DNA from: Poseidonia sp.
GTDB lineage: Archaea > Thermoplasmatota > Poseidoniia > Poseidoniales > Poseidoniaceae
Direction of reading: 5' to 3'
NCBI GenBank assembly: GCA_030827475.1
Contig: JAUREJ010000002.1
Span: 18,027 to 82,026, forward strand
DNA: 64,000 nt
Translations under genes and position numbers: made by a program
Notes under the pieces: model-generated
Seen by the model: only the letters and a program-made list of their open reading frames with translations
Databases searched by the model: none
Told to the model about the DNA's origin: nothing
Shown: positions 4,825-17,444 of the stretch, one piece after another
How the letters are laid out: the number at the start of each line of letters is the position of its first letter
Numbering within the stretch: position 1 is the stretch's first letter

Positions 4825-6468
4825 TTACTCATCCTCAAGGGACTCGTAACTCTTGAAGAACTCGTCAATGTCGATGACGCCGTCTTCGTTCTCGTCGGCC
4901 TTGTGGAAAATGACCCGTGATTCGTCTCTGGTGAACGTGAAACCAAGGGCTTTGAGTGCGTTCTGGAACTCACGAAGCGTAAGGTGATTCTTGTCCCCGA
5001 AATCGGCAGCGTGAAACGCAGCAAGCCTTCGGTCGTGCTCTGTGGTGCTGGCGATCCCGAAGAGTTGCCGGAAGGTGGTGAAGGGCGTATCTTGGTGAGC
5101 GACGTAGTGCTTCCTACCGTAGAGCGCATAGGTGACGATGCCCGCTACCAGGGCGACGCCTCCGCCGATGTAGGCTTTTGAACCCATAAGTGAGATCAGG
5201 AAGGCCCCTGCAACGATTCCCCAAATGTTGAGGTACGGGTAGAGCGGGCCTTTGTAGGCCGGTTTCCAGTCGTGGACATGACTGGTTTGGCGCAAAACGA
5301 TGACACAGGAATTGATGAGCATGAAGATCATGATTTTGAATCCGGATGCGAGTTTCACCACGTCCTTTAGCGGCACGAAAACGATGGCAAGGCCCATGGC
5401 TAAGCCCGTGATAAGAATCGGAAAGTGAGGGGTTTCAAATCGAGCGTTCACTTCCTCCAACGGCTGTGGCAGGAGGTTGTCTCGTGACATGGCAAACAAG
5501 AATCTGGAAGAGGCGAGGATACCGGCCAAAGCCATGGAGATCATGGTCAACACCGAAATGATGGCGACGAGAACGCCAAACTCAGAGCCTGCGATGTGTT
5601 CTGCGAAGACCGAGATAGGATTTTCAATGACTTTGCCGTCTTTCATCCACCACTCGCCGGGAAGCACAGCCATCATCGCAAAAGCCAGCGCTGAGTAAAC
5701 CACCGTTGCGATGGCGAGGGACACCAAGATGCCTGCGGGCAGGTTCTTTTCGGGGTTTTTGACCTCGTCCCCGATGGCTGCCACTTTGGTGACCCCTGCA
5801 TAAGCAACGAAAACGAAAGCTGCGGTCTCTGCAAGCGTCCACATGTCGGTTGAGAAGGCCCCTTCGATGGGGACAGATGCGTCAAAATCAGCCGAAAACA
5901 ACGCCATGACGCACATGAGTACCAGCAAAGTAACCGTCACGAGCACGATGGGAGTTTGGATGGCTTTGACCTTGGACACGCCAAGAATGTTGACGAACGT
6001 GATGAGAACCAATGCCGATAACGAAAGGGTGTACATGCTCAGTTCGATGTCAAAATACGCCGTCACTACAGCGAAATAGGCCGAGAAACCGATGAGGGCG
6101 AAGGCGGATTTGAGCAGGAAAGACGACCAGAGGCCGAGCCCGCTGATGGTTCCAATCAAGGGGCCGTAGGTTCTTTCCAAGTACACGTACGACCCGCCGC
6201 TCGAGGGCATGCCCGAGGACAATTCAGATTTTGAAACGGCTCCCGGAAGCACCACGGAAGCGGCGAGCAAAAAGGCCAACCAGATTCCGGGTCCCATGAT
6301 TTCAGCGGCAAACGTCGGCGTGACAAAGATGCCGGGTAACATGGCCGAGAGGGAGATAATCACCACGCCTGCGAGTCCGATGGTCCGTGCGAACGTTGTT
6401 TTGAGTTCGGCACCTGCGGATTTGAGATCTCCTTTTGCGACGCTCTTGATGATGTTTTCAACGGCCAT
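4825..6468 (-). CDS. APC-family amino acid permease with C-terminal EF-hand pair
   Basis: About 12 TM helices; APC motifs GIFVTP, ELSSGMPSSGGSYVY, FVAYAG, EVKNPEKNLP, SRFLFAMSRD, TPH. Tail contains a canonical EF loop DENEDGVIDIDE (4861-4896). SD-like GGGGGTGA upstream. Confidence 0.9.
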   Translation of the reverse strand: MAVENIIKSVAKGDLKSAGAELKTTFARTIGLAGVVIISLSAMLPGIFVTPTFAAEIMGPGIWLAFLLAASVVLPGAVSKSELSSGMPSSGGSYVYLERTYGPLIGTISGLGLWSSFLLKSAFALIGFSAYFAVVTAYFDIELSMYTLSLSALVLITFVNILGVSKVKAIQTPIVLVTVTLLVLMCVMALFSADFDASVPIEGAFSTDMWTLAETAAFVFVAYAGVTKVAAIGDEVKNPEKNLPAGILVSLAIATVVYSALAFAMMAVLPGEWWMKDGKVIENPISVFAEHIAGSEFGVLVAIISVLTMISMALAGILASSRFLFAMSRDNLLPQPLEEVNARFETPHFPILITGLAMGLAIVFVPLKDVVKLASGFKIMIFMLINSCVIVLRQTSHVHDWKPAYKGPLYPYLNIWGIVAGAFLISLMGSKAYIGGGVALVAGIVTYALYGRKHYVAHQDTPFTTFRQLFGIASTTEHDRRLAAFHAADFGDKNHLTLREFQNALKALGFTFTRDESRVIFHKADENEDGVIDIDEFFKSYESLEDE

Positions 6469-6577: not shown

Positions 6578-7999
6578 TCATGCTGGCATGTGAACGATAA
6601 CCTTCATTTCCACTGCAATCGGCGTGGGCAACGCATCGATAGCGAGTGTCGTTCGGGTGGGACCCACCTTTCCGAGCGTTTCGGCCCATACTTCGTTGTA
6701 CCCTTGGAAGTCACGTTTCATGTCAACAAGGAACGTTGTGACGTCAACCACCTGCTCCATGGTCGCTCCGGCTTCCTCCACGATGCGTTTGACGTTCTCT
6801 ACAACGGCACGGGTCTGTGCCTTGATGTCGTAAGGCAGGGGTTCTCCGTTTTTGTCATGTATTGGCCCTCCGGGGATGGCGTTTGTTCCAGGTTGTCGCG
6901 GGCCAACGCCAGAGAGAAACAGCATGTCTCCAACTCGGCGAGCGTGAGGGTATGCTCCGACGGGTTTGGGAGCGGTGGTGGTGTTCACGGAACCCTTTGC
7001 TTCCGTTGGTTCCCACAAGTCCGGTCCGTTTGACGTTTCTTCGGTGACTTCGTCGTTTGTTTGACTCTGAACTTGGTCCTCTTCGACGATGTCCAGGACG
7101 TCCCGTTCGCCGTGGTAGTACTCAACGTCGTCTTCATCGTACTCCTTGTCGCCAACTCCGCTGGAGGCAGGGTCAAGATGAACGACGGCTCCACCTGCGC
7201 CGTGAATTGCTTCGTATGCCATCACACGACCCGTCAAGTCGTTCCGGTTTCCGTTCATGGCCGAAAGCCACCACATGGGCTTGAAAGCGACCACCTTCTG
7301 CACCCGAATTTGTTGGTGAATCGTTCGCGAGAGCTGGCCGACATCTTCAAGCCGCCCCTGTTTGAAGAATTCCAGAATTTTCCGGTTCCACTCGTCATCT
7401 TTGAGGGAGTGAATTTTGTCATCTTGAGGCGAGATGAAATCCGTAAACATCCGGTTGGAAAGCGACATGGCGGTGATGGCCACGGCGCGCCGTCCTTGGG
7501 CCTTGATGACGTCGAGACACGACTTTGCAAGAACCGTGGTTTCGCTTCGGTTGGCGTACATGTTTGAAGAAACGATGACAGCGGGGATGCTGTTGTCGGG
7601 GTTCAGCAGTGTCAACGCCACAACCGAACCGACATCGATGGGGAACCCTTTGTAGTTCACACAGCGGCTTTGTAACCCGCGTTTGCGATTCGCTTCGTCC
7701 CATGCATGGGCGAACTCAGCGTCAATGTTGAACGAGTAAGGTATGGAGCCCAAATCGTGAAAGTCATGGTCCACCATCACCCATTCCGGGTTCGGGTCGG
7801 ATTGAATCTGATGGCCGATGATGGACGGCCAGGTCGTCGAGTACACGATGAGCAAATCCGCTTCAAGATCTCGAATCGTTTGGGCCGCTTCATCAAATGC
7901 GTCCCGAAGCCTCTGCCAGCCGGGGTTTTGGTCCGGAGCGAGCACGGTGTGAGGGTGGACGGGCACGACAAACGAGGCCACGACTTCTCCAGAACTCAT
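6578..7999 (-). CDS. amnA-amnD: Fusion: 2-aminophenol 1,6-dioxygenase alpha subunit (LigB class III extradiol family) + acidic linker + RidA-family 2-aminomuconate deaminase
   Basis: The N-part matches the AmnA/CnbCa pattern (LIVYSTTW, VNYKGFPID.GS, SNMY, DDEWNRKILE, FKPMWW, GGAVV). The C-part matches the NbaF/AmnD-like RidA pattern (PKPVGAYPHARRVGDMLFLSGVGPRQ, FLVDMKRDF, PTRTT, IAVEMKV). Confidence 0.85.
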   Translation of the reverse strand: MSSGEVVASFVVPVHPHTVLAPDQNPGWQRLRDAFDEAAQTIRDLEADLLIVYSTTWPSIIGHQIQSDPNPEWVMVDHDFHDLGSIPYSFNIDAEFAHAWDEANRKRGLQSRCVNYKGFPIDVGSVVALTLLNPDNSIPAVIVSSNMYANRSETTVLAKSCLDVIKAQGRRAVAITAMSLSNRMFTDFISPQDDKIHSLKDDEWNRKILEFFKQGRLEDVGQLSRTIHQQIRVQKVVAFKPMWWLSAMNGNRNDLTGRVMAYEAIHGAGGAVVHLDPASSGVGDKEYDEDDVEYYHGERDVLDIVEEDQVQSQTNDEVTEETSNGPDLWEPTEAKGSVNTTTAPKPVGAYPHARRVGDMLFLSGVGPRQPGTNAIPGGPIHDKNGEPLPYDIKAQTRAVVENVKRIVEEAGATMEQVVDVTTFLVDMKRDFQGYNEVWAETLGKVGPTRTTLAIDALPTPIAVEMKVIVHMPA

Positions 8000-8904
8000 G
8001 CTTCGCTCACCTCATGGGCATGGCACGGCCATTCCACCACGGCGTTTCCCGTGCCGATGATGGTGCCGTACCCGTGAAGGATGGCGGGGTAATCCGGGAC
8101 GTCCAAGGTGGACAGAAGCCATGAGAGGCCCCCTCCGTCACTTTCCGCGATGGCCTGTTCGGTAAACTCCGGCATCTCATCGAGGATGCGTTGAGCCTGG
8201 CCGCTTCGCATGTAATCGATGATTCGCATGTCCCAAAGGTGCATGGCATGACTTGTGATGTGTTCTTTGCTCATGTCTTCGGGGACTTCGGATTCGGTGG
8301 TGAAATGCCGGTGGGAAAGGGAATTGCTGGCGAGGACGACCACGCGCTTTCCACTCGCTTCGATCGCCTTGCGCGTGACTTTGCCCAATTCGATCATGAT
8401 TTCCTGCATGACCTCGACCGAGTAGTACGCCGTTGAGCGGTTGCTTGAAATCACGACAAGGGGTTTGTCCCATTTGGGATTGAACAAATGGCCGGTGGTG
8501 ATGGTGCCGTAATCGACACGGAAGTCGGGGTTTTCCATCATCTTCACCGGCAATCCGGCGGCCTCTGCCTCGTCGTGAATCGCCTTTGCGAGTTCAACGT
8601 CCACGTTCATGTTGTAGTGGTAGCGAAACAGATTTGGGAAAATGGGGTCGACGGAGAGCCCTTCGAAGTGTTCCAAGCCCAAAAAATGGGTTCCGACATA
8701 CGTCTGCCAGTGCGGGGAGAGCAAAACGATGGCGTCGTAATCGATGTCGGCGAGTGAAGCACGAAGGCGTTCGTAGCCCCAGCGGAGTTGCTCCCATCCG
8801 CCTTCGGCTACAGGTTCGTTTTGGGGTGGGTTTTCCGCATACACCAGATGCGGTGGGTGAGGGGCGAGGCATCCTGCGACAATTTGCCCTTTGGCCATGC
8901 CCAT
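7996..8904 (-). CDS. amnB: 2-aminophenol 1,6-dioxygenase beta (catalytic) subunit
   Basis: Recognisable AmnB/CnbCb sequence: LAPHPPHLVYAENPPQNEP..GGWE.LRW.YER, SPHW, SVDPIFPN.FRY, DYGTITT.HL, SNSLSH.HF, PEDMSKE, YGTIIGTGNAVVEW. Fe ligands and catalytic His appear retained. ATGA overlap with the alpha gene at 7996-7999. Start may be the ATG two codons later. Confidence 0.9.
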   Translation of the reverse strand: MGMAKGQIVAGCLAPHPPHLVYAENPPQNEPVAEGGWEQLRWGYERLRASLADIDYDAIVLLSPHWQTYVGTHFLGLEHFEGLSVDPIFPNLFRYHYNMNVDVELAKAIHDEAEAAGLPVKMMENPDFRVDYGTITTGHLFNPKWDKPLVVISSNRSTAYYSVEVMQEIMIELGKVTRKAIEASGKRVVVLASNSLSHRHFTTESEVPEDMSKEHITSHAMHLWDMRIIDYMRSGQAQRILDEMPEFTEQAIAESDGGGLSWLLSTLDVPDYPAILHGYGTIIGTGNAVVEWPCHAHEVSEA

Positions 8905-8988: not shown

Positions 8989-9486
8989 TTGGCCATGGAG
9001 GGAGAGGGTGGCGCAGTGGTGCTTCCTCTTGATGCACCGCTGCTTCCTTCTTCAGCAACCTGGAAGGAGACGTGGGACAACGTCGGTTTTCCCGCCTTCT
9101 TCGGCGCAGGTGTCGGAGCTGTGTGGCAGGTGGCGGTCCAACCTCGTCTAACCTACGACCTTCCCAACCCGGTTCAAGGAGCGTTATTGCTCATGTTGCT
9201 GCTCTCTCCTCTGTTTCATCGTTGGCTCACCGACCACGACCCTGCTCGCTGGAAAGAATACCTTGCCGGGGCATCGGTGCTCAGTGTTTTTTTTCTCGGC
9301 GTTTGGATGACGGGCTACGGGGCTTTGATTTGCGGAGGGTACGTGGCCATCGTCGTTTGGATCTGGGTCAGCACCTCGTGGTGGCGATTTCATCTCCCAC
9401 CGTTTCGCTCCGCTCTGTGGCACACCCTCGGAGTCAATGTTGGGGCCTTGGGGGGCTCATTGTTGGCGTACAACCTCTTCGGATGA
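8989..9486 (+). CDS. Hypothetical integral membrane protein (about 5 TM)
   Basis: Hydrophobic ORF filling the gap between amnB and panB; no recognised motif. Confidence 0.65.
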   Translation: MAMEGEGGAVVLPLDAPLLPSSATWKETWDNVGFPAFFGAGVGAVWQVAVQPRLTYDLPNPVQGALLLMLLLSPLFHRWLTDHDPARWKEYLAGASVLSVFFLGVWMTGYGALICGGYVAIVVWIWVSTSWWRFHLPPFRSALWHTLGVNVGALGGSLLAYNLFG

Positions 9487-10350: not shown

Positions 10351-11079
10351 TCAGTCGGTTTTGTCGTACAGGCCTACGAGTTGACTTTGCAGCTCGTTCA
10401 TCGCTTCTTCAGCCGTAGTGCAGGCGAGCAGTTGCTGTCGCCCTTCAAGGTCGTTCAGACAAAGGGCGGCGATGTTGTAAATCGAGGTGCGGGCCTCGCT
10501 GATCTGCTCCTCGCACAAGCGCTCAATCAAGTGGTCAAGCATGCTGCTATCGACGTTCATACCGTCCCCGGCCCGTCGTATGACCTCTGCGGCAAACCCC
10601 TCGAGAACGGTTTGGTCGGCATCGGTCAAGGCCCCCTCCTCCGGCAGGTAACGGACCTTTCCCGAAACGTACAGGCGTTGGTGCGGATGGTTTTCTGGCA
10701 CCCGCTCGAGCAAGGTGTGGACGTCGGGTGCAATGCCCCCTTCAATGAGGTCGGCAAGCGAGGGGTCGTGAAGTGGGGGAAGCGCGGGTTCAATCACCTG
10801 TTCAATGAAGAACCGACGGCCACCCTCAACGGTGATGAAGTGGTTCATGCCCCGGGTTTCATGGCGAACAATCACCGCTTCACAGCCGTGTCGCCGCGGA
10901 CCGTCCCAGCCGTTGGTGGGCTCAAACGGATCGTTGAGCACCAAACCGAAAGGGCGTTCGTCGAGGATGCAGGTGTCCAGCATTTGGCGGTAGCGAGGTT
11001 CGAAGACCCGCAACTCTTGGGTTTCTCCAGGGAAGAGGACCATGGGAAGGACAAACAACGGGAGCGTGTCTTCATCCAT
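10351..11079 (-). CDS. Stand-alone LON peptidase substrate-binding (LON N / PUA-like) domain protein
   Basis: LPLFVLPMVLFPGETQELRVFEPRYRQML..C...RPFGLV, G.RRF motifs. Start chosen at MDEDTLPLF; the ORF-track start overlaps the ALDH gene. Confidence 0.8.
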   Translation of the reverse strand: MDEDTLPLFVLPMVLFPGETQELRVFEPRYRQMLDTCILDERPFGLVLNDPFEPTNGWDGPRRHGCEAVIVRHETRGMNHFITVEGGRRFFIEQVIEPALPPLHDPSLADLIEGGIAPDVHTLLERVPENHPHQRLYVSGKVRYLPEEGALTDADQTVLEGFAAEVIRRAGDGMNVDSSMLDHLIERLCEEQISEARTSIYNIAALCLNDLEGRQQLLACTTAEEAMNELQSQLVGLYDKTD

Positions 11080-11117
11080 GCGCAAAGCAAACATCGGTGG
11101 CCTTTGAAGATGTGTTC

Positions 11118-12566
11118 TCAGGGTTGTTGAATACAGACGTTGGTCATCTCGGAGAAGAAGGCCATCGACCAGTCGCCCCCTTCCCGGCCGACGCCGGACT
11201 GCTTGACGCCACCAAACGGCGTACGCAGGTCTCGGTTCAGCCAAGTGTTTACCCAAACGATGCCCGTTTCCATCCGCTTTGCAAAAGCATGACCTCGCTC
11301 GATATCCGCAGTCCACACCGAGCCCGCCAGCCCGTATTCCGTGAGGTTCGCCATCTCCACCGCTTCGTCCTCGCTGGCGAACGTATGCAAGGTCACGACC
11401 GGGCCGAAAATCTCCTCGGTAGCCGTGCGGCAGGATGCAGGGAGGCCGGCAATCACGGTGGGGCGAAGGAAAGCACCTTCGGAGGAGACGCCGACGACAG
11501 GTGCCTGTTCGCTCAAACCTCCGGTGAGCACGGTGCCGCCTTCTTCGATACCGAGGCGAATGTAGGATTCCACCTTGGCCTTGTGGTCTTGGGAGATGAC
11601 CGTGCCCATTTGGGTCGCCTCGTCCCGGGGGTCTCCCAAGCGAAGTTCCTCCACTTTCTCCACGAATTTTGCGGCGAAGATGTCGTAAATCGTTTCATCC
11701 ACCAAAATGCGGGAGCCGCACAGACAGACCTGCCCTGAATTGGTGAAAGATGCCCGCACCAGGCTCTCCATGATGTCGTCGAGGGGCGCGTCATCAAGCA
11801 CCACCGTGGCGTTTTTGCCGCCCAATTCAAGAGAGAGTTTCTTGAACATGGGCGCAGCGGTCGCCGCAACCAAGCGTCCGGTTGCCGTTCCCCCGGTGAA
11901 CGAGATGCCGCGAATGTCGGGATGTTCGACGATGGCTTGGCCCACCTCCGGGCCGTACCCGTGAACAAGGTTGAACACGCCGGCGGGCAAGCCCAAGCCG
12001 TGAACGGTTTTGGCGAGGAAGTCCGCCGTGAGCGGGGTGAGCTCCGAGGGTTTGGCGACGATGGTGTTGCCCATCAACAAGGCCGGGGCAACTTTCCACG
12101 ACAGCAAATAGAGCGGAAGGTTCCAAGGCGTGATGAGCCCCACAACACCCACCGGTGAGCGATGGACGTGGTTCACGGCTCCGTGATCGGAAAACGTGGG
12201 GTCTTCGTGACCTTTGGCGTGGTGAGCGAAGAACCGAAAGTTAGCGACGGAGCGAGCAGCGTCCACTCGCCGAGCCAGTGAAATCGGTTTGCCGGTGTCG
12301 AGGCTTTCGAGTTGAGCGATGGTTTCCGCCTCCGCCTCCAAGGCGTCAGCAATGCGTTCCAGCCATGCGATGCGCTGCTCCATCGTCGTGCTGCCCCAAG
12401 CCGTCGCTGCTTCTTTGGCCGCCTCCGTGGCTCGTTTGACATCGATGGCCTCTGAACGGGCTACTGCGGTGATGACGGTGTTGGTCGCTGGGTTGATGGT
12501 GTCCAAGGTTTTGCCCGAAGCAGCCTCAACAAAGGCGCCGTTGATGTAGTTGCGGACAGGCTCCAT
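11118..12566 (-). CDS. amnC: 2-aminomuconate 6-semialdehyde dehydrogenase (ALDH8A1/AmnC-like)
   Basis: RSVANFRFFA, PWNLPLYLLSWK, KPSELTP, FTGGTATG, LELGGKN, GQVCLCGSR (catalytic Cys), EEIFGPV, RDLRTPFGG. These match the hydroxy/aminomuconate semialdehyde dehydrogenase subfamily. Confidence 0.85.
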   Translation of the reverse strand: MEPVRNYINGAFVEAASGKTLDTINPATNTVITAVARSEAIDVKRATEAAKEAATAWGSTTMEQRIAWLERIADALEAEAETIAQLESLDTGKPISLARRVDAARSVANFRFFAHHAKGHEDPTFSDHGAVNHVHRSPVGVVGLITPWNLPLYLLSWKVAPALLMGNTIVAKPSELTPLTADFLAKTVHGLGLPAGVFNLVHGYGPEVGQAIVEHPDIRGISFTGGTATGRLVAATAAPMFKKLSLELGGKNATVVLDDAPLDDIMESLVRASFTNSGQVCLCGSRILVDETIYDIFAAKFVEKVEELRLGDPRDEATQMGTVISQDHKAKVESYIRLGIEEGGTVLTGGLSEQAPVVGVSSEGAFLRPTVIAGLPASCRTATEEIFGPVVTLHTFASEDEAVEMANLTEYGLAGSVWTADIERGHAFAKRMETGIVWVNTWLNRDLRTPFGGVKQSGVGREGGDWSMAFFSEMTNVCIQQP

Positions 12567-13684
12567 CAGTTCACCTCTGGGTCAAAATGCCAGCGGTCTC
12601 TGTCGGGGTCCCATTCGTCCCACGTCGGCACGGTTTCCAAGATGTCAAGGTAGGCATCGGGCACGATGCCCGGCACGATGAAGGCTTTTTGCCGGTGCAA
12701 AGGGTAGGGGTTTCGCAGGTTGATGCCCAAGACTCCGAGCAGGGCTCGGGCGACGTACCATGTGGCTTGAGAGTTCCATCCGTGGGCGATCTTGACGACG
12801 ATACCCAGGCCTTTGGGGTAGTCGGGATGTTCAATGGCCATGCCGAGCAAGCCGTCCGCTCCTTCTTTGGCGATGACCCGACCTTCGCCGGCCTTGAGCA
12901 CCGTTGAATCGAGCCGGTTGAACCCTCCAACGAGGTCAGGATGGCGAACCATGGCCTCCCAAATCCAATCGTCGTCCTTGTCACGAACGAGCCCGGCATA
13001 GATTTGCGCAAGTTCGGAAACGGTGTTGGAAACGGTCGGCAAACCGCACCCGTCCTTGGCAATGCGCAACGGCTTCCAATCCTCGCCGAGGTAGGTTCGC
13101 AGTTGCTCCATGTAAGCGTGGAAGACCTCGTGGGTGGGCAGGGTGTAACCGGCGCGGTTCCAACCTTTCTTCCGACAGCCTCGGAGGATGGCGGCGTGCT
13201 CTCCCGAGCAGGTGTGGAACCAACGGCGAGGCCGCCGCACCTGTCGGCCAAACTGAATCAGCGGGACGTCGAGCGGCGTCAGCATCAAGGGCCATTCGGA
13301 TTCGTTCAAGAGCGACTGGGCGGCCGCAACGTGCTCCGTATCTCCGTTGTGCGACGCCACAGCGATGGCTTTCTGTTCCCACGAACAATCGGCGAGTTCT
13401 TCCGTGAAGGCCTTGAGCATGAAGGGCTTCATCATCGAACGACCGTAGCAGAGGACGTTACCTCCAAAGGAGTGGATCACCTCGTCACCGTGTGCCCAAG
13501 CCACGGCGCCGTGAATGGTGGTTTCCGATACGCCGTTTCGTCGGTAATCCACCAGCGGCTCCCAAGCCACTTCTCGCCCCGTGGGAATGCCCTCCACCTG
13601 CTCGCCAAGCGGTGAGGACGGATACATGGCCGAACCGGGTTTTCCGGGTTGAACGGCGGAGTAGGTGTCGTGATGGATGCCCAT
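12566..13684 (-). CDS. Class 3 (Rhizobium etli-type, asparaginase II family) asparaginase-like hydrolase, variant active site
   Basis: RSMMKPF, ASHNGD, TCSGEH (canonical NCSGKH), DGCGLP, AKEGADG (canonical AKLGADG), GIVVKI..G. TGA/ATG one-base overlap with the ALDH at 12566. SD GGGAGG upstream of the ATG at 13684. Confidence 0.85.
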   Translation of the reverse strand: MGIHHDTYSAVQPGKPGSAMYPSSPLGEQVEGIPTGREVAWEPLVDYRRNGVSETTIHGAVAWAHGDEVIHSFGGNVLCYGRSMMKPFMLKAFTEELADCSWEQKAIAVASHNGDTEHVAAAQSLLNESEWPLMLTPLDVPLIQFGRQVRRPRRWFHTCSGEHAAILRGCRKKGWNRAGYTLPTHEVFHAYMEQLRTYLGEDWKPLRIAKDGCGLPTVSNTVSELAQIYAGLVRDKDDDWIWEAMVRHPDLVGGFNRLDSTVLKAGEGRVIAKEGADGLLGMAIEHPDYPKGLGIVVKIAHGWNSQATWYVARALLGVLGINLRNPYPLHRQKAFIVPGIVPDAYLDILETVPTWDEWDPDRDRWHFDPEVN

Positions 13685-13685
13685 C

Positions 13686-14936
13686 TCACGACCTCCCCAA
13701 GAGGGCTTCAACGCGGGGAACGACGCGCTCCATGTAGGCCGTCATGTTTCGACACACGCGCTCGGAATCGTGGTTGAAGAAATCAAACCACGCCATGATG
13801 CGGTCGTCGGCGTGAAAGCGCTCAACCATCTGCCTCGCTACTTCCTCAACGTTGCCGATGAGGGCGTTGTCCGCAGCACGGTTCACTTTGTCGGGGTCGA
13901 TGGTGCCTTCAAGGGCGTTCCAGTACGCACTCAAGGCGCGCTGTGCCTCTTCCTGAGCAGCCTGAGATTGTTGCTCCGGTGTGAGCCCCGCCTCATCGTT
14001 GAGGAAAACAAAACTCGTTCGGGGCATGTCGGACCGTTTCCATTCACCGCCGTCGGCGTGGTACACTTCGGCCATGCGCTCGTGCGTGGCGTCGATGATT
14101 TCGGGCGACGTGATGGAGAGATTGAACACCTTGACGGGAAGAATGCTGTTGACGAAGGTCTGGGCCTTCGGGTCGTGCGTTCCTGCAACCAAGCCGAGCA
14201 GTTCTCTTCGGAAATGGCTTGGCACGATTTTCAGGTCTTCAAACACGTATCGTGAGGGGATGGCGATCGAGTTCGGGCGGTGTTCGAGGGCCTCGAACTC
14301 CACAGCAGCATCCTGCACGGCCAGCCAATCCTCGTCGCGTCGGAAGTTGCCCCGTGTGAGCACGGTGGACCGAATCATCTCGGAATTGATGACATCGCCC
14401 CTCAGCAAACGAAGGAAAATCTCGGCGGCTTCCATGAAAATTTGCCCTCGAAGCGCGGGCCAAGCCGCCTCTTCAACGGCGGTCCTCGGCACGACGCCAT
14501 AGGGGCGCGCCATGAACTCAAACCGGCCTGCGGAAAATCCGACGTGAAGCCGGCGATGTTCACTCGGCTCCAATCCGTGGAGGCTGAGAACGTTGGCGAT
14601 GCGTTCGGCTTGGGCGATCGGTCCACCCGATGCGAGGATGGAGATGACCGCACTGCCGATCTCGATGTTTCTCGTGCGGCGAAACGATTCCAAAGCGAGT
14701 TGGGGGAAATCCGTGCAGAGACCGACTTCACCTTTCCAATGCGGCACAACGGGTTGATGGTTGCTCTTTTGCGTCTCAGTTGAAAGGTGCGCTTGGGCGA
14801 TCCATCCCGTTTTGAACCCGAGTTGGTCTGCGCACACCAGTTGGTGGAAGTAGTTCCGTAGCATGGTGGCTTCGTCGGGAATGACCCCGTTTTCGTCAGG
14901 GGTCTGGGAAATGGAGAAGAAGATGTCATGTTCCAT
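13686..14936 (-). CDS. Luciferase-like (LLM class) flavin-dependent monooxygenase
   Basis: ADQLGFKTGWIAQAH, TRNIEIGSAV, AERIA, RLHVGFSAG..EF, and C-terminal ALIGNVEEVARQM...ERVVPRV; typical bacterial-luciferase TIM barrel. Stop lies 1 nt from the next start. Confidence 0.85.
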   Translation of the reverse strand: MEHDIFFSISQTPDENGVIPDEATMLRNYFHQLVCADQLGFKTGWIAQAHLSTETQKSNHQPVVPHWKGEVGLCTDFPQLALESFRRTRNIEIGSAVISILASGGPIAQAERIANVLSLHGLEPSEHRRLHVGFSAGRFEFMARPYGVVPRTAVEEAAWPALRGQIFMEAAEIFLRLLRGDVINSEMIRSTVLTRGNFRRDEDWLAVQDAAVEFEALEHRPNSIAIPSRYVFEDLKIVPSHFRRELLGLVAGTHDPKAQTFVNSILPVKVFNLSITSPEIIDATHERMAEVYHADGGEWKRSDMPRTSFVFLNDEAGLTPEQQSQAAQEEAQRALSAYWNALEGTIDPDKVNRAADNALIGNVEEVARQMVERFHADDRIMAWFDFFNHDSERVCRNMTAYMERVVPRVEALLGRS

Positions 14937-14989
14937 GCCCACGCACCGATTCCCGCCACGGCGCCATGGCTCATAATGGGTATGGCCCT

Positions 14990-15844: not shown

Positions 15845-16660
15845 TCAAATCGAGCGTAGTCGGCCGCCGTCAACGGCGAGGCTCACGCCACGTATACCGC
15901 CAGAGGCGGGCAGGCATAGGAAAGTGATGGCGCTGGCGGTTTCGAGCGGGTCAATGAGACGACCGATGGGGACTTGGTCCAGCCAACCTTTGCGAACATC
16001 GGTTGCGGATTTCCCCGTTCGCTCTTGGATCGATGCGGAAAGGTTGCCCAAGCGTTCGGTATCGGTAAAGCCCGGCAAGACGTTGTTGATCGTCACGCAG
16101 GGCGGCAATTCGTTGGACAAGGATTTCGCCCAGGACGCCATGGCTCCTCGCAACGTGTTGGAAAGGCCGATGTTCGGTATGGGCTCTTTCACGGAGGTCG
16201 AAATGATTTGGACGATGCGTCCGTATCCTTCGGCTTCCATACCGGGAACTGCGGCCTTCACGAGGGTGTGAGCGGCGTGGAGGTGGCGCTTGAAAGGGGC
16301 CTCAAAGTCGTTGACCTCGTTGCCCAAGAGCGGTCCACCCGGAGGGCCACCTGCGTTGTTGATGAGCACGTGAACCGGTCCGAGAACTTCCGTGGCCGAG
16401 GCAAAGGCGGGTGCGATGCTTTCGGTGTCTTCCAAATCGAGCATCAGGGCTTGATGCGTCCCGTCACCGAGGGTGGAGAGCGTTGCGCACAGTTCGGTAA
16501 GGGCCGCCCCGTTTCGTGCGCAAACGGTGACGTTGGCGCCCGCTTTTGCCAACATTTTGGCCGTCGCTTCACCGATGCCCTTGCTCGCACCGCAGACGAA
16601 GGCGTGTTTGCCTTTGAGCGCTGACGAAGCGTAGGGGAAGTCGTTGCCGAGCAGGTCCAT
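15845..16660 (-). CDS. Atypical SDR oxidoreductase (BKR-like subgroup; the type I recall adjacent to kynurenine-pathway genes)
   Basis: VCGASKGIG Rossmann motif, LINNAGGPPGG, ISTSVKEPI, SNTLR in place of YxxxK, NNVLPG.T.T.RL, DGG. Confidence 0.9.
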   Translation of the reverse strand: MDLLGNDFPYASSALKGKHAFVCGASKGIGEATAKMLAKAGANVTVCARNGAALTELCATLSTLGDGTHQALMLDLEDTESIAPAFASATEVLGPVHVLINNAGGPPGGPLLGNEVNDFEAPFKRHLHAAHTLVKAAVPGMEAEGYGRIVQIISTSVKEPIPNIGLSNTLRGAMASWAKSLSNELPPCVTINNVLPGFTDTERLGNLSASIQERTGKSATDVRKGWLDQVPIGRLIDPLETASAITFLCLPASGGIRGVSLAVDGGRLRSI

Positions 16661-16697
16661 GGTGACGGGATGGCTCCGTAGGTCATAGGCCTTGGCC

Positions 16698-17444
16698 TTA
16701 CAACCAATCGAGCACGGTGTTGAGTTGAACCAACCAATCGTCAGAGGCGACGTCGATGATGTCGTAATGGTCACCGGGCAGCCAAAGCTTCTGGACGTCG
16801 GCACCCTTGGCCTTCATGACCCTCGCATAGGTTTCCGATTGCTCAAGGGGAACGTCGACGTCGTGCTCGCCGTGGAAGAGCAGCACGCTGGTTTGCGGCG
16901 GGTGGTCCACCGGGTTGAGTTGGCGCCAGAGGGTTTCGTTCTCTTCAGGCGAACAACCGATCCACCTTCGGACGGCATCACCATCGTCGGACAGGCGAGC
17001 ACGGTCGGCACCGATGAGGTCCGTCAAGGGTGCTTGAGCAATCGCCAACCAGGGCCGGCGCTCGGCTTTCGCACTCATCAAGAGCGCCAGTTGGCCACCG
17101 GCGGAATGCCCCATGACCATCGAGCGGGTCATGTCGATGCCCGGGAGCAACGCCAACTGTCCCCATGCCCGCAACACGTCGGAGAGGGTGTCCATCCAAA
17201 CCCCTTCTTCGCCTTCCTCCCATCGCTTGAATTCGATGTTCCAAGCGGCGACACCCGCTTCGGCGAGGTCTTCTGCGATGGGTTGCATCAACTCAAGGGT
17301 GTACTTCGTTTTCCAGAAGCCACCGTGAATGAGCATGATGCATGGGATGCCTTCGTCCTTTTGAAACGGCGACGGGTCATCGGGCATGTGGAGGTCAGCG
17401 AACTGCCACGCTTCTGCACCCCACTGCATCCGGTCAACGGCCAT
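16698..17444 (-). CDS. Alpha/beta hydrolase, HGGxW (HSL/arylformamidase-like) family
   Basis: IHGGFW oxyanion motif, GHSAGG nucleophile elbow, D.DVP acid, GDH His. Confidence 0.85.
   Translation of the reverse strand: MAVDRMQWGAEAWQFADLHMPDDPSPFQKDEGIPCIMLIHGGFWKTKYTLELMQPIAEDLAEAGVAAWNIEFKRWEEGEEGVWMDTLSDVLRAWGQLALLPGIDMTRSMVMGHSAGGQLALLMSAKAERRPWLAIAQAPLTDLIGADRARLSDDGDAVRRWIGCSPEENETLWRQLNPVDHPPQTSVLLFHGEHDVDVPLEQSETYARVMKAKGADVQKLWLPGDHYDIIDVASDDWLVQLNTVLDWL

Follow-up and report, generated by a model that had tools for sequence, protein, structure and literature searches.

An AmnAB-type aminophenol dioxygenase in Poseidoniales archaea and its likely place in tryptophan catabolism

In textbooks, aminophenol dioxygenases belong to the breakdown of xenobiotics, as part of the pathways for nitrobenzene and chloronitrobenzene, and are represented here by AmnBA of Pseudomonas sp. 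AP-3 and CnbCaCb of Comamonas testosteroni CNB-1. Organisms carrying the related ARO microcompartment enzyme come from unpolluted habitats, and the authors of that study concluded that its 2-aminophenol must be supplied by an upper pathway not yet known (PMC10470539). We analyzed a gene pair of this family in a 64,000-nt window, the whole stretch of DNA under study, from contig JAUREJ010000002.1 of Poseidonia sp., a member of Marine Group IIa (MGIIa) in the order Poseidoniales; all coordinates below are window positions. Taken as a whole, the data are best explained by an AmnAB/CnbC-type Fe(II) extradiol dioxygenase of an ortho-aminophenol that serves tryptophan catabolism, an explanation we consider likely. 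Within the Poseidoniales, tryptophan catabolism is the most likely role of the enzyme, and its gene cluster probably finishes an undescribed route of tryptophan breakdown rather than replacing the usual 3-hydroxyanthranilate enzyme.

The initial annotation had proposed a 2-aminophenol dioxygenase pair at this site, and two minus-strand open reading frames (ORFs) were found there, at 7996-8904 (302 amino acids [aa]) and 6578-7999 (473 aa). The two overlap by 4 nt (ATGA), the stop codon of amnB lying across the start codon of amnA. The same adjacency and beta-then-alpha order occur on pCNB1, in Ensifer, and in Pseudomonas veronii, and the two window genes are presumably cotranscribed. Four segments can be distinguished:

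7996..8904, minus strand: amnB (302 aa), predicted catalytic beta subunit of an aminophenol extradiol dioxygenase with the LigB fold
7160..7999, minus strand: amnA domain (residues 1-280 of 473), predicted noncatalytic alpha subunit
6992..7159, minus strand: acidic linker from the alpha to the RidA domain, with 21 Asp/Glu in 63 residues (276-338)
6578..6991, minus strand: RidA/YjgF domain of the AmnE type (2-aminomuconate deaminase), residues 337-473

The start of amnB may instead be at 8898, because most orthologues align from Met3. Its product matched Pfam LigB (PF02900) at 3e-23, and a phmmer search of the PDB returned AmnB (8ihg_A, 2.2e-110, 372 bits), CnbCb (3vsg_B, 1e-104), and 7txy_B (9e-93). 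In tblastn comparisons, homologues from Comamonas CNB-1 (cnbCb), Burkholderia, P. veronii, and Ensifer shared 54 to 57% identity with it. The alpha domain also matched PF02900, with CnbCa (3vsg_A, 7e-40) and AmnA (8ihg_B, 1e-36) as its PDB relatives; for both subunits these E values are far beyond chance. All of the beta motifs listed in the initial annotation were present, with HPPH at residue 16, SPHW at 63, SHRH at 197 (SH.H), and the late Glu at 254. Residues H16, H65, E254, and H198 align with H13, H62, E251, and H195 of CnbCb, and the same four were invariant in a nine-sequence alignment spanning both AmnB clades (H14, H63, E252, and H196 in the numbering of L113). These are reportedly (Li et al. 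2013) the Fe(II) 2-His-1-carboxylate ligands plus the catalytic His, and beta is thus predicted to keep the full set.

At the corresponding four positions the alpha domain has V14, T56, N182, and V233 (G11, Q52, G179, and D231 in CnbCa). With all four catalytic residues gone, no metal binding should be possible, as in CnbCa. The initial annotation had pointed to the lack of the middle His (YSTTW, at alpha residue 53) as a mark of a noncatalytic subunit, and this alignment agrees. Its description of the gene was correct as to alpha identity and incomplete as to size, since the ORF encodes 473 aa rather than about 270, a RidA/L-PSP domain occupying residues 337 to 472. From these features, the pair is predicted to form a heteromer of catalytic beta and metal-free alpha that opens the ring of an ortho-aminophenol. 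Subunits of this kind depend on one another for folding (PMC10470539).

The assignment of an AmnAB/CnbC-type pair to a Marine Group II (MGII) archaeon thus holds for the PDB matches of both subunits, and phylogeny gave the same answer. In a tree rooted with alpha subunits, beta and AmnB/CnbCb formed one clade with 100/100 support against alpha. Within it, the MGIIa and MGIIb beta sequences were each monophyletic and were sisters at 100/99. A profile search spoke to a different placement, in which the protein would belong to another LigB subfamily (HpaD or DODA, both named in the initial annotation, or MhpB) and use a catecholic substrate. Weak NCBIfam matches to HpaD_Fe (88.3 bits, 5.9e-25) and MhpB (25.3 bits) are what such a placement could cite, but the respective cutoffs are 315.95 and 291 bits, and the match to AmnB reaches 372. 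The two-subunit architecture with a metal-free alpha and the amino-specific enzymes acting downstream also argue against it, leaving this alternative barely credible.

A larger beta tree included 80 additional metagenome loci recovered by an alignment-based scan; an earlier scan with a single bacterial AmnB had found nothing. A search of a representative library returned mostly fragments and was of little use for the tree, the AmnB family collapsing there to very few 50% clusters. In the larger tree, the window beta fell in a 43-row clade (SH-aLRT 95) containing all MGII sequences, and AmnB of strain AP-3, CnbCb, and other proteobacterial sequences fell in a separate 57-row clade. On its sequence, the window enzyme therefore belongs to the family but represents a subfamily of its own, and it is not a strict orthologue of the characterized enzymes.

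Of 201 Poseidoniales genomes, 193 carried AmnB, as did 60 of the 61 high-quality ones; every genus was represented (24/24). Identity to the window protein in this survey was 84 to 99% in most MGIIa and 62 to 65% in MGIIb; in 80 Poseidoniaceae loci it was 84 to 98%, the nearest locus being 98% identical. The gene thus appears to be a core, vertically inherited component of Poseidoniales genomes and not a stray xenobiotic gene. Such near-universal, vertical presence implies a natural substrate, and to that extent an expectation voiced in the initial annotation is borne out.

What the dioxygenase makes can be judged from the enzymes that accompany it. The RidA domain fused to alpha matched Pfam Ribonuc_L-PSP at 2e-24, and its best PDB match was the 2-aminomuconate deaminase 6izh (6e-28), whereas the best generic RidA reached 1e-21. 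The alignment continues across AmnE's long Lp2 loop, where generic RidA has a 12-residue gap, and the domain retains the Ser-Gly, Arg, and Lys residues described for the AmnE cleft (PMC6742747). The amnA::ridA fusion was found in 75 loci. In MGIIb, amnA and ridA are two ORFs with a 4-nt overlap in 8 of 10 loci (L092 to L101; e.g., L092:10700-12318), split at the linker, and the split RidA ORF bears an acidic N-terminal extension of about 90 residues; the remaining two, L094 and L097, are fused as in MGIIa. Alternation between fusion and split is a classic signature of cooperating proteins. A tblastn search of the 1.82-Mb assembly with the RidA domain returned no second homologue, and the fused domain may be the sole RidA-family protein of the organism.

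The other informative partner is an aldehyde dehydrogenase (ALDH):

11118..12566, minus strand: ALDH, 2-aminomuconate-6-semialdehyde dehydrogenase type, about 2 kb from the dioxygenase pair

Its seven best PDB matches are all 2-aminomuconate-6-semialdehyde dehydrogenases, from 2.8e-146 (4u3w) to 1e-133, with 4i1w at 3.8e-136. Residues R105 and R445 are counterparts of Arg120 and Arg464, which are strictly conserved in the 2-aminomuconate/2-hydroxymuconate semialdehyde dehydrogenase family and absent in other ALDHs (PMC4286809), and the catalytic E247 and C281 are retained. Given the types of the ALDH and the RidA domain, the dioxygenase product is therefore expected to be a 2-aminomuconate semialdehyde, which would then be oxidized and deaminated. 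Judged by these matches, the dioxygenase is accompanied by both a putative 2-aminomuconate-semialdehyde dehydrogenase and a putative 2-aminomuconate deaminase, as in amn-type pathways.

The same two enzymes would also form the lower part of the classical kynurenine pathway, and the initial annotation had suggested that this LigB-fold enzyme replaces the cupin 3-hydroxyanthranilate 3,4-dioxygenase (HAO), cleaving 3-hydroxyanthranilate to ACMS with the same regiochemistry. In that pathway, 3-hydroxyanthranilate is formed from kynurenine by KMO and kynureninase, and its cleavage product needs ACMSD before it can enter an AMSDH-type dehydrogenase. Searches of the organism's own genome found no Amidohydro_2/ACMSD protein, no kynureninase above the cutoff (a single match reached 26 bits), and no KMO candidate of the canonical type, the sole long FAD_binding_3 match being a geranylgeranyl reductase. 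Since a single metagenome-assembled genome (MAG) can miss genes, the gene-content searches were repeated on 101 Poseidoniales genomes that were at least 85% complete:

Tryptophan 2,3-dioxygenase (TDO): 99/101 genomes
Asparaginase-like gene of the window cluster: 100/101 genomes (protein identity 85-99% in MGIIa, 69-77% in MGIIb)
Kynureninase over the cutoff: 2/101 genomes
Amidohydro_2 protein (ACMSD type): 2/101 genomes, the same two as kynureninase

The two genomes with kynureninase and Amidohydro_2 hits served as an internal positive control for both searches. They belong to the MGIIb genus g19 (G035 and G095) and are the sole carriers of a true kynureninase (E value of 1e-122 or better) and an ACMSD-type amidohydrolase, which they have besides AmnB; they may have acquired a classical kynurenine branch laterally. 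A Pfam search for the cupin 3-HAO found none, a result consistent with replacement, though the control genomes gave no match either and the absence of cupin HAO is expected under every hypothesis. With TDO nearly universal, kynureninase and ACMSD nearly absent, and no canonical KMO candidate in the window's own genome, it follows that the order produces kynurenine but has no means either of forming 3-hydroxyanthranilate or of using its cleavage product. The ACMSD homologue that a 3-hydroxyanthranilate route calls for, and that the initial annotation had named as a check, was missing from the window's own genome and nearly so from the order. Reportedly, the JS45 enzyme did not accept 3-hydroxyanthranilate. 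Replacement of HAO, despite the shared regiochemistry and the presence of TDO, is thus highly improbable. The 99 TDO-bearing genomes and the 2 with kynureninase further imply that, without the window's cluster, TDO would have no outlet.

Gene neighborhoods supplied a second line of evidence. The 80 metagenome loci were divided by AmnB identity to the window protein, with denominators giving the loci that had enough flanking sequence:

RidA domain after amnA: 16/17 loci with AmnB at least 59% identical, 1/28 below 59%
ALDH immediately upstream: 13/19 at or above 59%, 2/32 below
Asparaginase-like gene upstream: 9/15 at or above 59%, 0/22 below
PF04199 cyclase-family gene downstream: 5/14 at or above 59%, 0/25 below

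Loci below 59% identity had the classical order ridA-amnB-amnA-ALDH. In terms of the tree, 37 of 38 context-informative rows of the 43-row clade were linked to a luciferase-like flavin monooxygenase (LLM), the asparaginase-like gene, KynB, or a downstream RidA, a linkage not seen in the clade of AP-3 AmnB and CnbCb. Along their entire length, the PF04199 cyclase-family proteins match TIGR03035 arylformamidase (another name for kynurenine formamidase) at 8e-61 and 2e-59, and in other lineages a TIGR03035 gene lies directly after amnA::ridA. The genes that accompany the window's AmnB clade therefore point to kynurenine. No TDO was found in the 80 loci by tblastn with the MGII TDO.

The remaining neighbors in the window that bear on the pathway are as follows:

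12566..13711, minus strand: asparaginase-II (class 3)-like hydrolase, Pfam PF06089 at 6.5e-49 and PDB 7os3 at 1.4e-16
13686..14942, minus strand: divergent LLM, 418 aa, fold assigned via the MGIIb orthologue and a structural model
15845..16804, minus strand: short-chain dehydrogenase/reductase (SDR), Pfam adh_short at 2e-35
16698..17444, minus strand: alpha/beta hydrolase, Pfam BD-FAE at 1.9e-16 and a weak match to the PDB kynurenine formamidase 4e11 (5.8e-4)
4825..6468, minus strand: APC-family amino acid permease ending in a pair of EF hands, AA_permease_2 at 7e-37 and EF-hand_7 at 1.7e-10

The asparaginase-like hydrolase, which had no NCBIfam match, is a candidate for releasing aspartate and 2-aminophenol. 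Across the order, it is at least as conserved as AmnB. Open frames of 813 to 858 aa around its gene had suggested fusions, but the loci contained no in-frame LLM::asparaginase fusion and only one dubious asparaginase::ALDH ORF. The LLM had no PDB sequence match even at an E value of 10, and the window copy had no Pfam match; the MGIIb orthologue matched PF00296 at 1.2e-9. An AlphaFold model (pLDDT 82.8) confirmed a predicted luciferase-like fold, its top Foldseek matches being luciferase-like monooxygenases at probability 1.0 and including the type II Baeyer-Villiger enzyme 4uwm (3,6-diketocamphane monooxygenase). This makes the LLM a candidate kynurenine oxygenase.

The permease gene lies directly downstream of amnA::ridA, a position kept in MGIIa and MGIIb loci, and its product may import the pathway substrate under calcium control. 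The SDR gene lies directly upstream of the LLM gene in MGIIb and metagenome clusters; the enzyme possibly carries out a downstream reduction and is a candidate for handling 4-oxalocrotonate. In 80 Poseidoniaceae loci, the conserved order was LLM, asparaginase-like gene, ALDH, (LON-domain gene), panB, orf165, amnB, amnA::ridA, and permease, with the LLM-asparaginase-ALDH block at times inverted as a unit. The MGIIb locus L097 carries a contiguous same-strand array, SDR-LLM-asparaginase-ALDH-amnB-amnA::ridA-permease-panB, and some MGIIb genomes have the same type of array. Four metagenome contigs of GC 0.34 to 0.36 (L169, L171, L183, and L184) also have a complete same-strand array, SDR-LLM-asparaginase-ALDH-amnB-amnA-ridA-permease; their AmnB is 72 to 74% identical to that of the window and sister to MGIIa in the tree. 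Directly upstream of the L097 array, at L097:3026-3781 on the plus strand, is a Formyl_trans_N-domain protein (1e-12) that could handle the formyl group of N-formylkynurenine. Divergent from amnB in the window is orf165 (8989-9486, plus strand), which has no family match and is kept at this place in MGIIa with 39 to 94% identity. Between ALDH and amnB, around 10351-11316 (minus strand), the cluster is interrupted by a LON substrate-binding-domain protein and panB.

Placed in order, these enzymes suggest the following scheme. Tryptophan would become kynurenine through a formamidase and TDO, whose gene lies in another part of the genome. The clustered LLM and asparaginase-like hydrolase might then split kynurenine to aspartate and 2-aminophenol: Baeyer-Villiger oxygenation of the aryl ketone would give a beta-aspartyl ester of 2-aminophenol, able to shift to an N-aryl asparagine, and an asparaginase-fold hydrolase would be a natural catalyst for freeing aspartate and 2-aminophenol from either form. 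AmnBA would cleave 2-aminophenol to 2-aminomuconate semialdehyde, a compound that can cyclize spontaneously to picolinate. The nearby ALDH would oxidize the semialdehyde to 2-aminomuconate, and the fused RidA domain would deaminate the latter to 4-oxalocrotonate and ammonia. Here the chemistry asked of each enzyme would be typical of its own family and TDO would gain an outlet; we infer that 2-aminophenol is the substrate and kynurenine its origin. The Baeyer-Villiger model also fits the gene content better than does replacement of HAO. In its broadest form, the proposal is that AmnBA::RidA opens the ring in a third aerobic tryptophan route, one that bypasses kynureninase via an LLM Baeyer-Villiger oxygenase and an asparaginase-fold hydrolase. 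This route would be core in all MGII archaea and shared with many uncultured bacteria, and it would be the natural source of substrate, so far missing, for the 2-aminophenol dioxygenases of unpolluted habitats. We regard this broad form as evenly balanced between being right and being wrong.

The same genes would serve, and the same end products would form, if ring opening preceded the release of aspartate. In this order of steps, the LLM would be a kynurenine 3-hydroxylase, the dioxygenase would cleave 3-hydroxykynurenine, and the asparaginase-like enzyme would hydrolyze the beta-aspartyl-carbonyl bond of the ring-opened product to aspartate and 2-aminomuconate semialdehyde. Gene context is silent on step order, and 3-hydroxykynurenine is itself an ortho-aminophenol. 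On the other hand, two reactions would have no precedent in their families (aromatic hydroxylation by an LLM and C-C hydrolysis by an asparaginase fold), and a much bulkier substrate would have to fit a beta subunit that is 54 to 57% identical to 2-aminophenol enzymes. On these arguments from chemistry, cleavage of 3-hydroxykynurenine appears unlikely.

A role apart from tryptophan, in which the module scavenges free aminophenols or catechols of algal, photochemical, or pollutant origin from seawater, would fit the characterized relatives, which degrade exogenous 2-aminophenol and turn over catechol as well (PMC10470539), and would fit a TDO that is unlinked in the window's own genome. It is harder to reconcile with near-perfect co-occurrence with TDO and the asparaginase-like gene across an order of small genomes, with the adjacent amino acid permease, with the physical linkage of kynurenine formamidase in other lineages, or with the absence of the classical lower meta-pathway genes. 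We judge scavenging to be decidedly improbable.

Several points weigh against a tryptophan route through 2-aminophenol. No biochemical precedent for the kynurenine-to-2-aminophenol step was found in the literature, and no publication was found that ties MGII/Poseidoniales to aminophenol dioxygenase, TDO, kynurenine, or aminomuconate. Every characterized 2-aminophenol dioxygenase in the tree (AmnB of AP-3 and CnbCb) sits in the sister clade, so that naming the substrate means extrapolating over some 45% sequence divergence. TDO lies outside the cluster in the window's own genome, on contig C47, and in MGIIa panB and the LON-domain gene part ALDH from amnB. The alpha/beta hydrolase is a weak candidate for the kynurenine formamidase step, with no KynB-type homologue elsewhere in the same genome, and no flavin reductase partner for the LLM was identified. 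The classical amn lower meta-pathway genes are missing as well, the genome having only one small YcgM-like gene of the FAA_hydrolase family; 4-oxalocrotonate decarboxylase, 2-oxopent-4-enoate hydratase, aldolase, and acetaldehyde dehydrogenase are absent from the window, the last two not having been searched genome-wide. Finally, the MAG itself is 87% complete.

Here a supposed pollutant-degrading enzyme is a conserved core gene in an archaeal group that ranks among the most abundant in surface seawater, tied to TDO by gene order and co-occurrence in genomes that lack kynureninase. If true, the proposed tryptophan route through 2-aminophenol would give marine heterotrophs a new way of using tryptophan, yielding aspartate and ammonia, would provide functions for two unassigned enzyme families, and would explain the source of the dioxygenase family before industrial nitroaromatics. 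Annotation of these proteins varies. IMG names them 2-aminophenol dioxygenase subunits. RefSeq/NCBI often names AmnA and AmnB homologues (L087 and L109; P0043 and P0083) [quoted passage not shown] a systematic misnaming through which metabolic reconstructions miss the pathway.

Comparison with described systems shows where the window locus is conventional and where it departs. Cupin HAO/NbaC likewise opens an ortho-aminophenol beside its hydroxyl group, in an extradiol-type reaction, and delivers a product to an AMSDH-type dehydrogenase; its fold is unrelated to LigB, and the kynureninase, KMO, and ACMSD that go with HAO are absent here. The RidA domain has its best match in AmnE of Pseudomonas sp. 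AP-3 (6izh, 6e-28; PMC6742747), both having the long Lp2 loop and the cleft residues Ser-Gly, Arg, and Lys, and differs in being fused to AmnA in MGIIa or, in most MGIIb, encoded by a translationally coupled ORF with the acidic extension of about 90 residues. The ARO 2-aminophenol dioxygenase of Micromonospora rosaria (7txy; PMC10470539) is also of the AmnAB type (9e-93 to the window beta), but it resides inside a bacterial microcompartment, its beta subunit is extended at the N terminus, it is not fused to RidA, and neither an LLM nor an asparaginase has been reported as its partner.

The nearest comparison is with AmnBA of Pseudomonas sp. AP-3 (8ihg) and CnbCaCb of C. testosteroni CNB-1 (3vsg to 3vsj). 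These share with the window pair the LigB folds, the beta-then-alpha gene order, and the His, His, Glu, and His residues that are present in beta (54 to 57% identity) and missing in alpha, and they are accompanied by the same kind of ALDH and RidA-type deaminase. In contrast, the window alpha is about 30% identical to its bacterial counterparts and is fused to the deaminase, whereas bacteria have a separate ridA upstream of beta, and the window cluster is without genes for 4-oxalocrotonate decarboxylase, hydratase, and aldolase. Upstream partners in the window are an LLM and an asparaginase-like hydrolase, compared with a nitroreductase and a mutase in the bacterial systems, and the window genes are chromosomal and core in an archaeal order, unlike those of the bacteria, which are on plasmids and transposons. 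The enzyme is of a known kind; new are the separate clade to which it belongs, the fusion with a deaminase, its status as a core gene of archaea, and its upstream partners.

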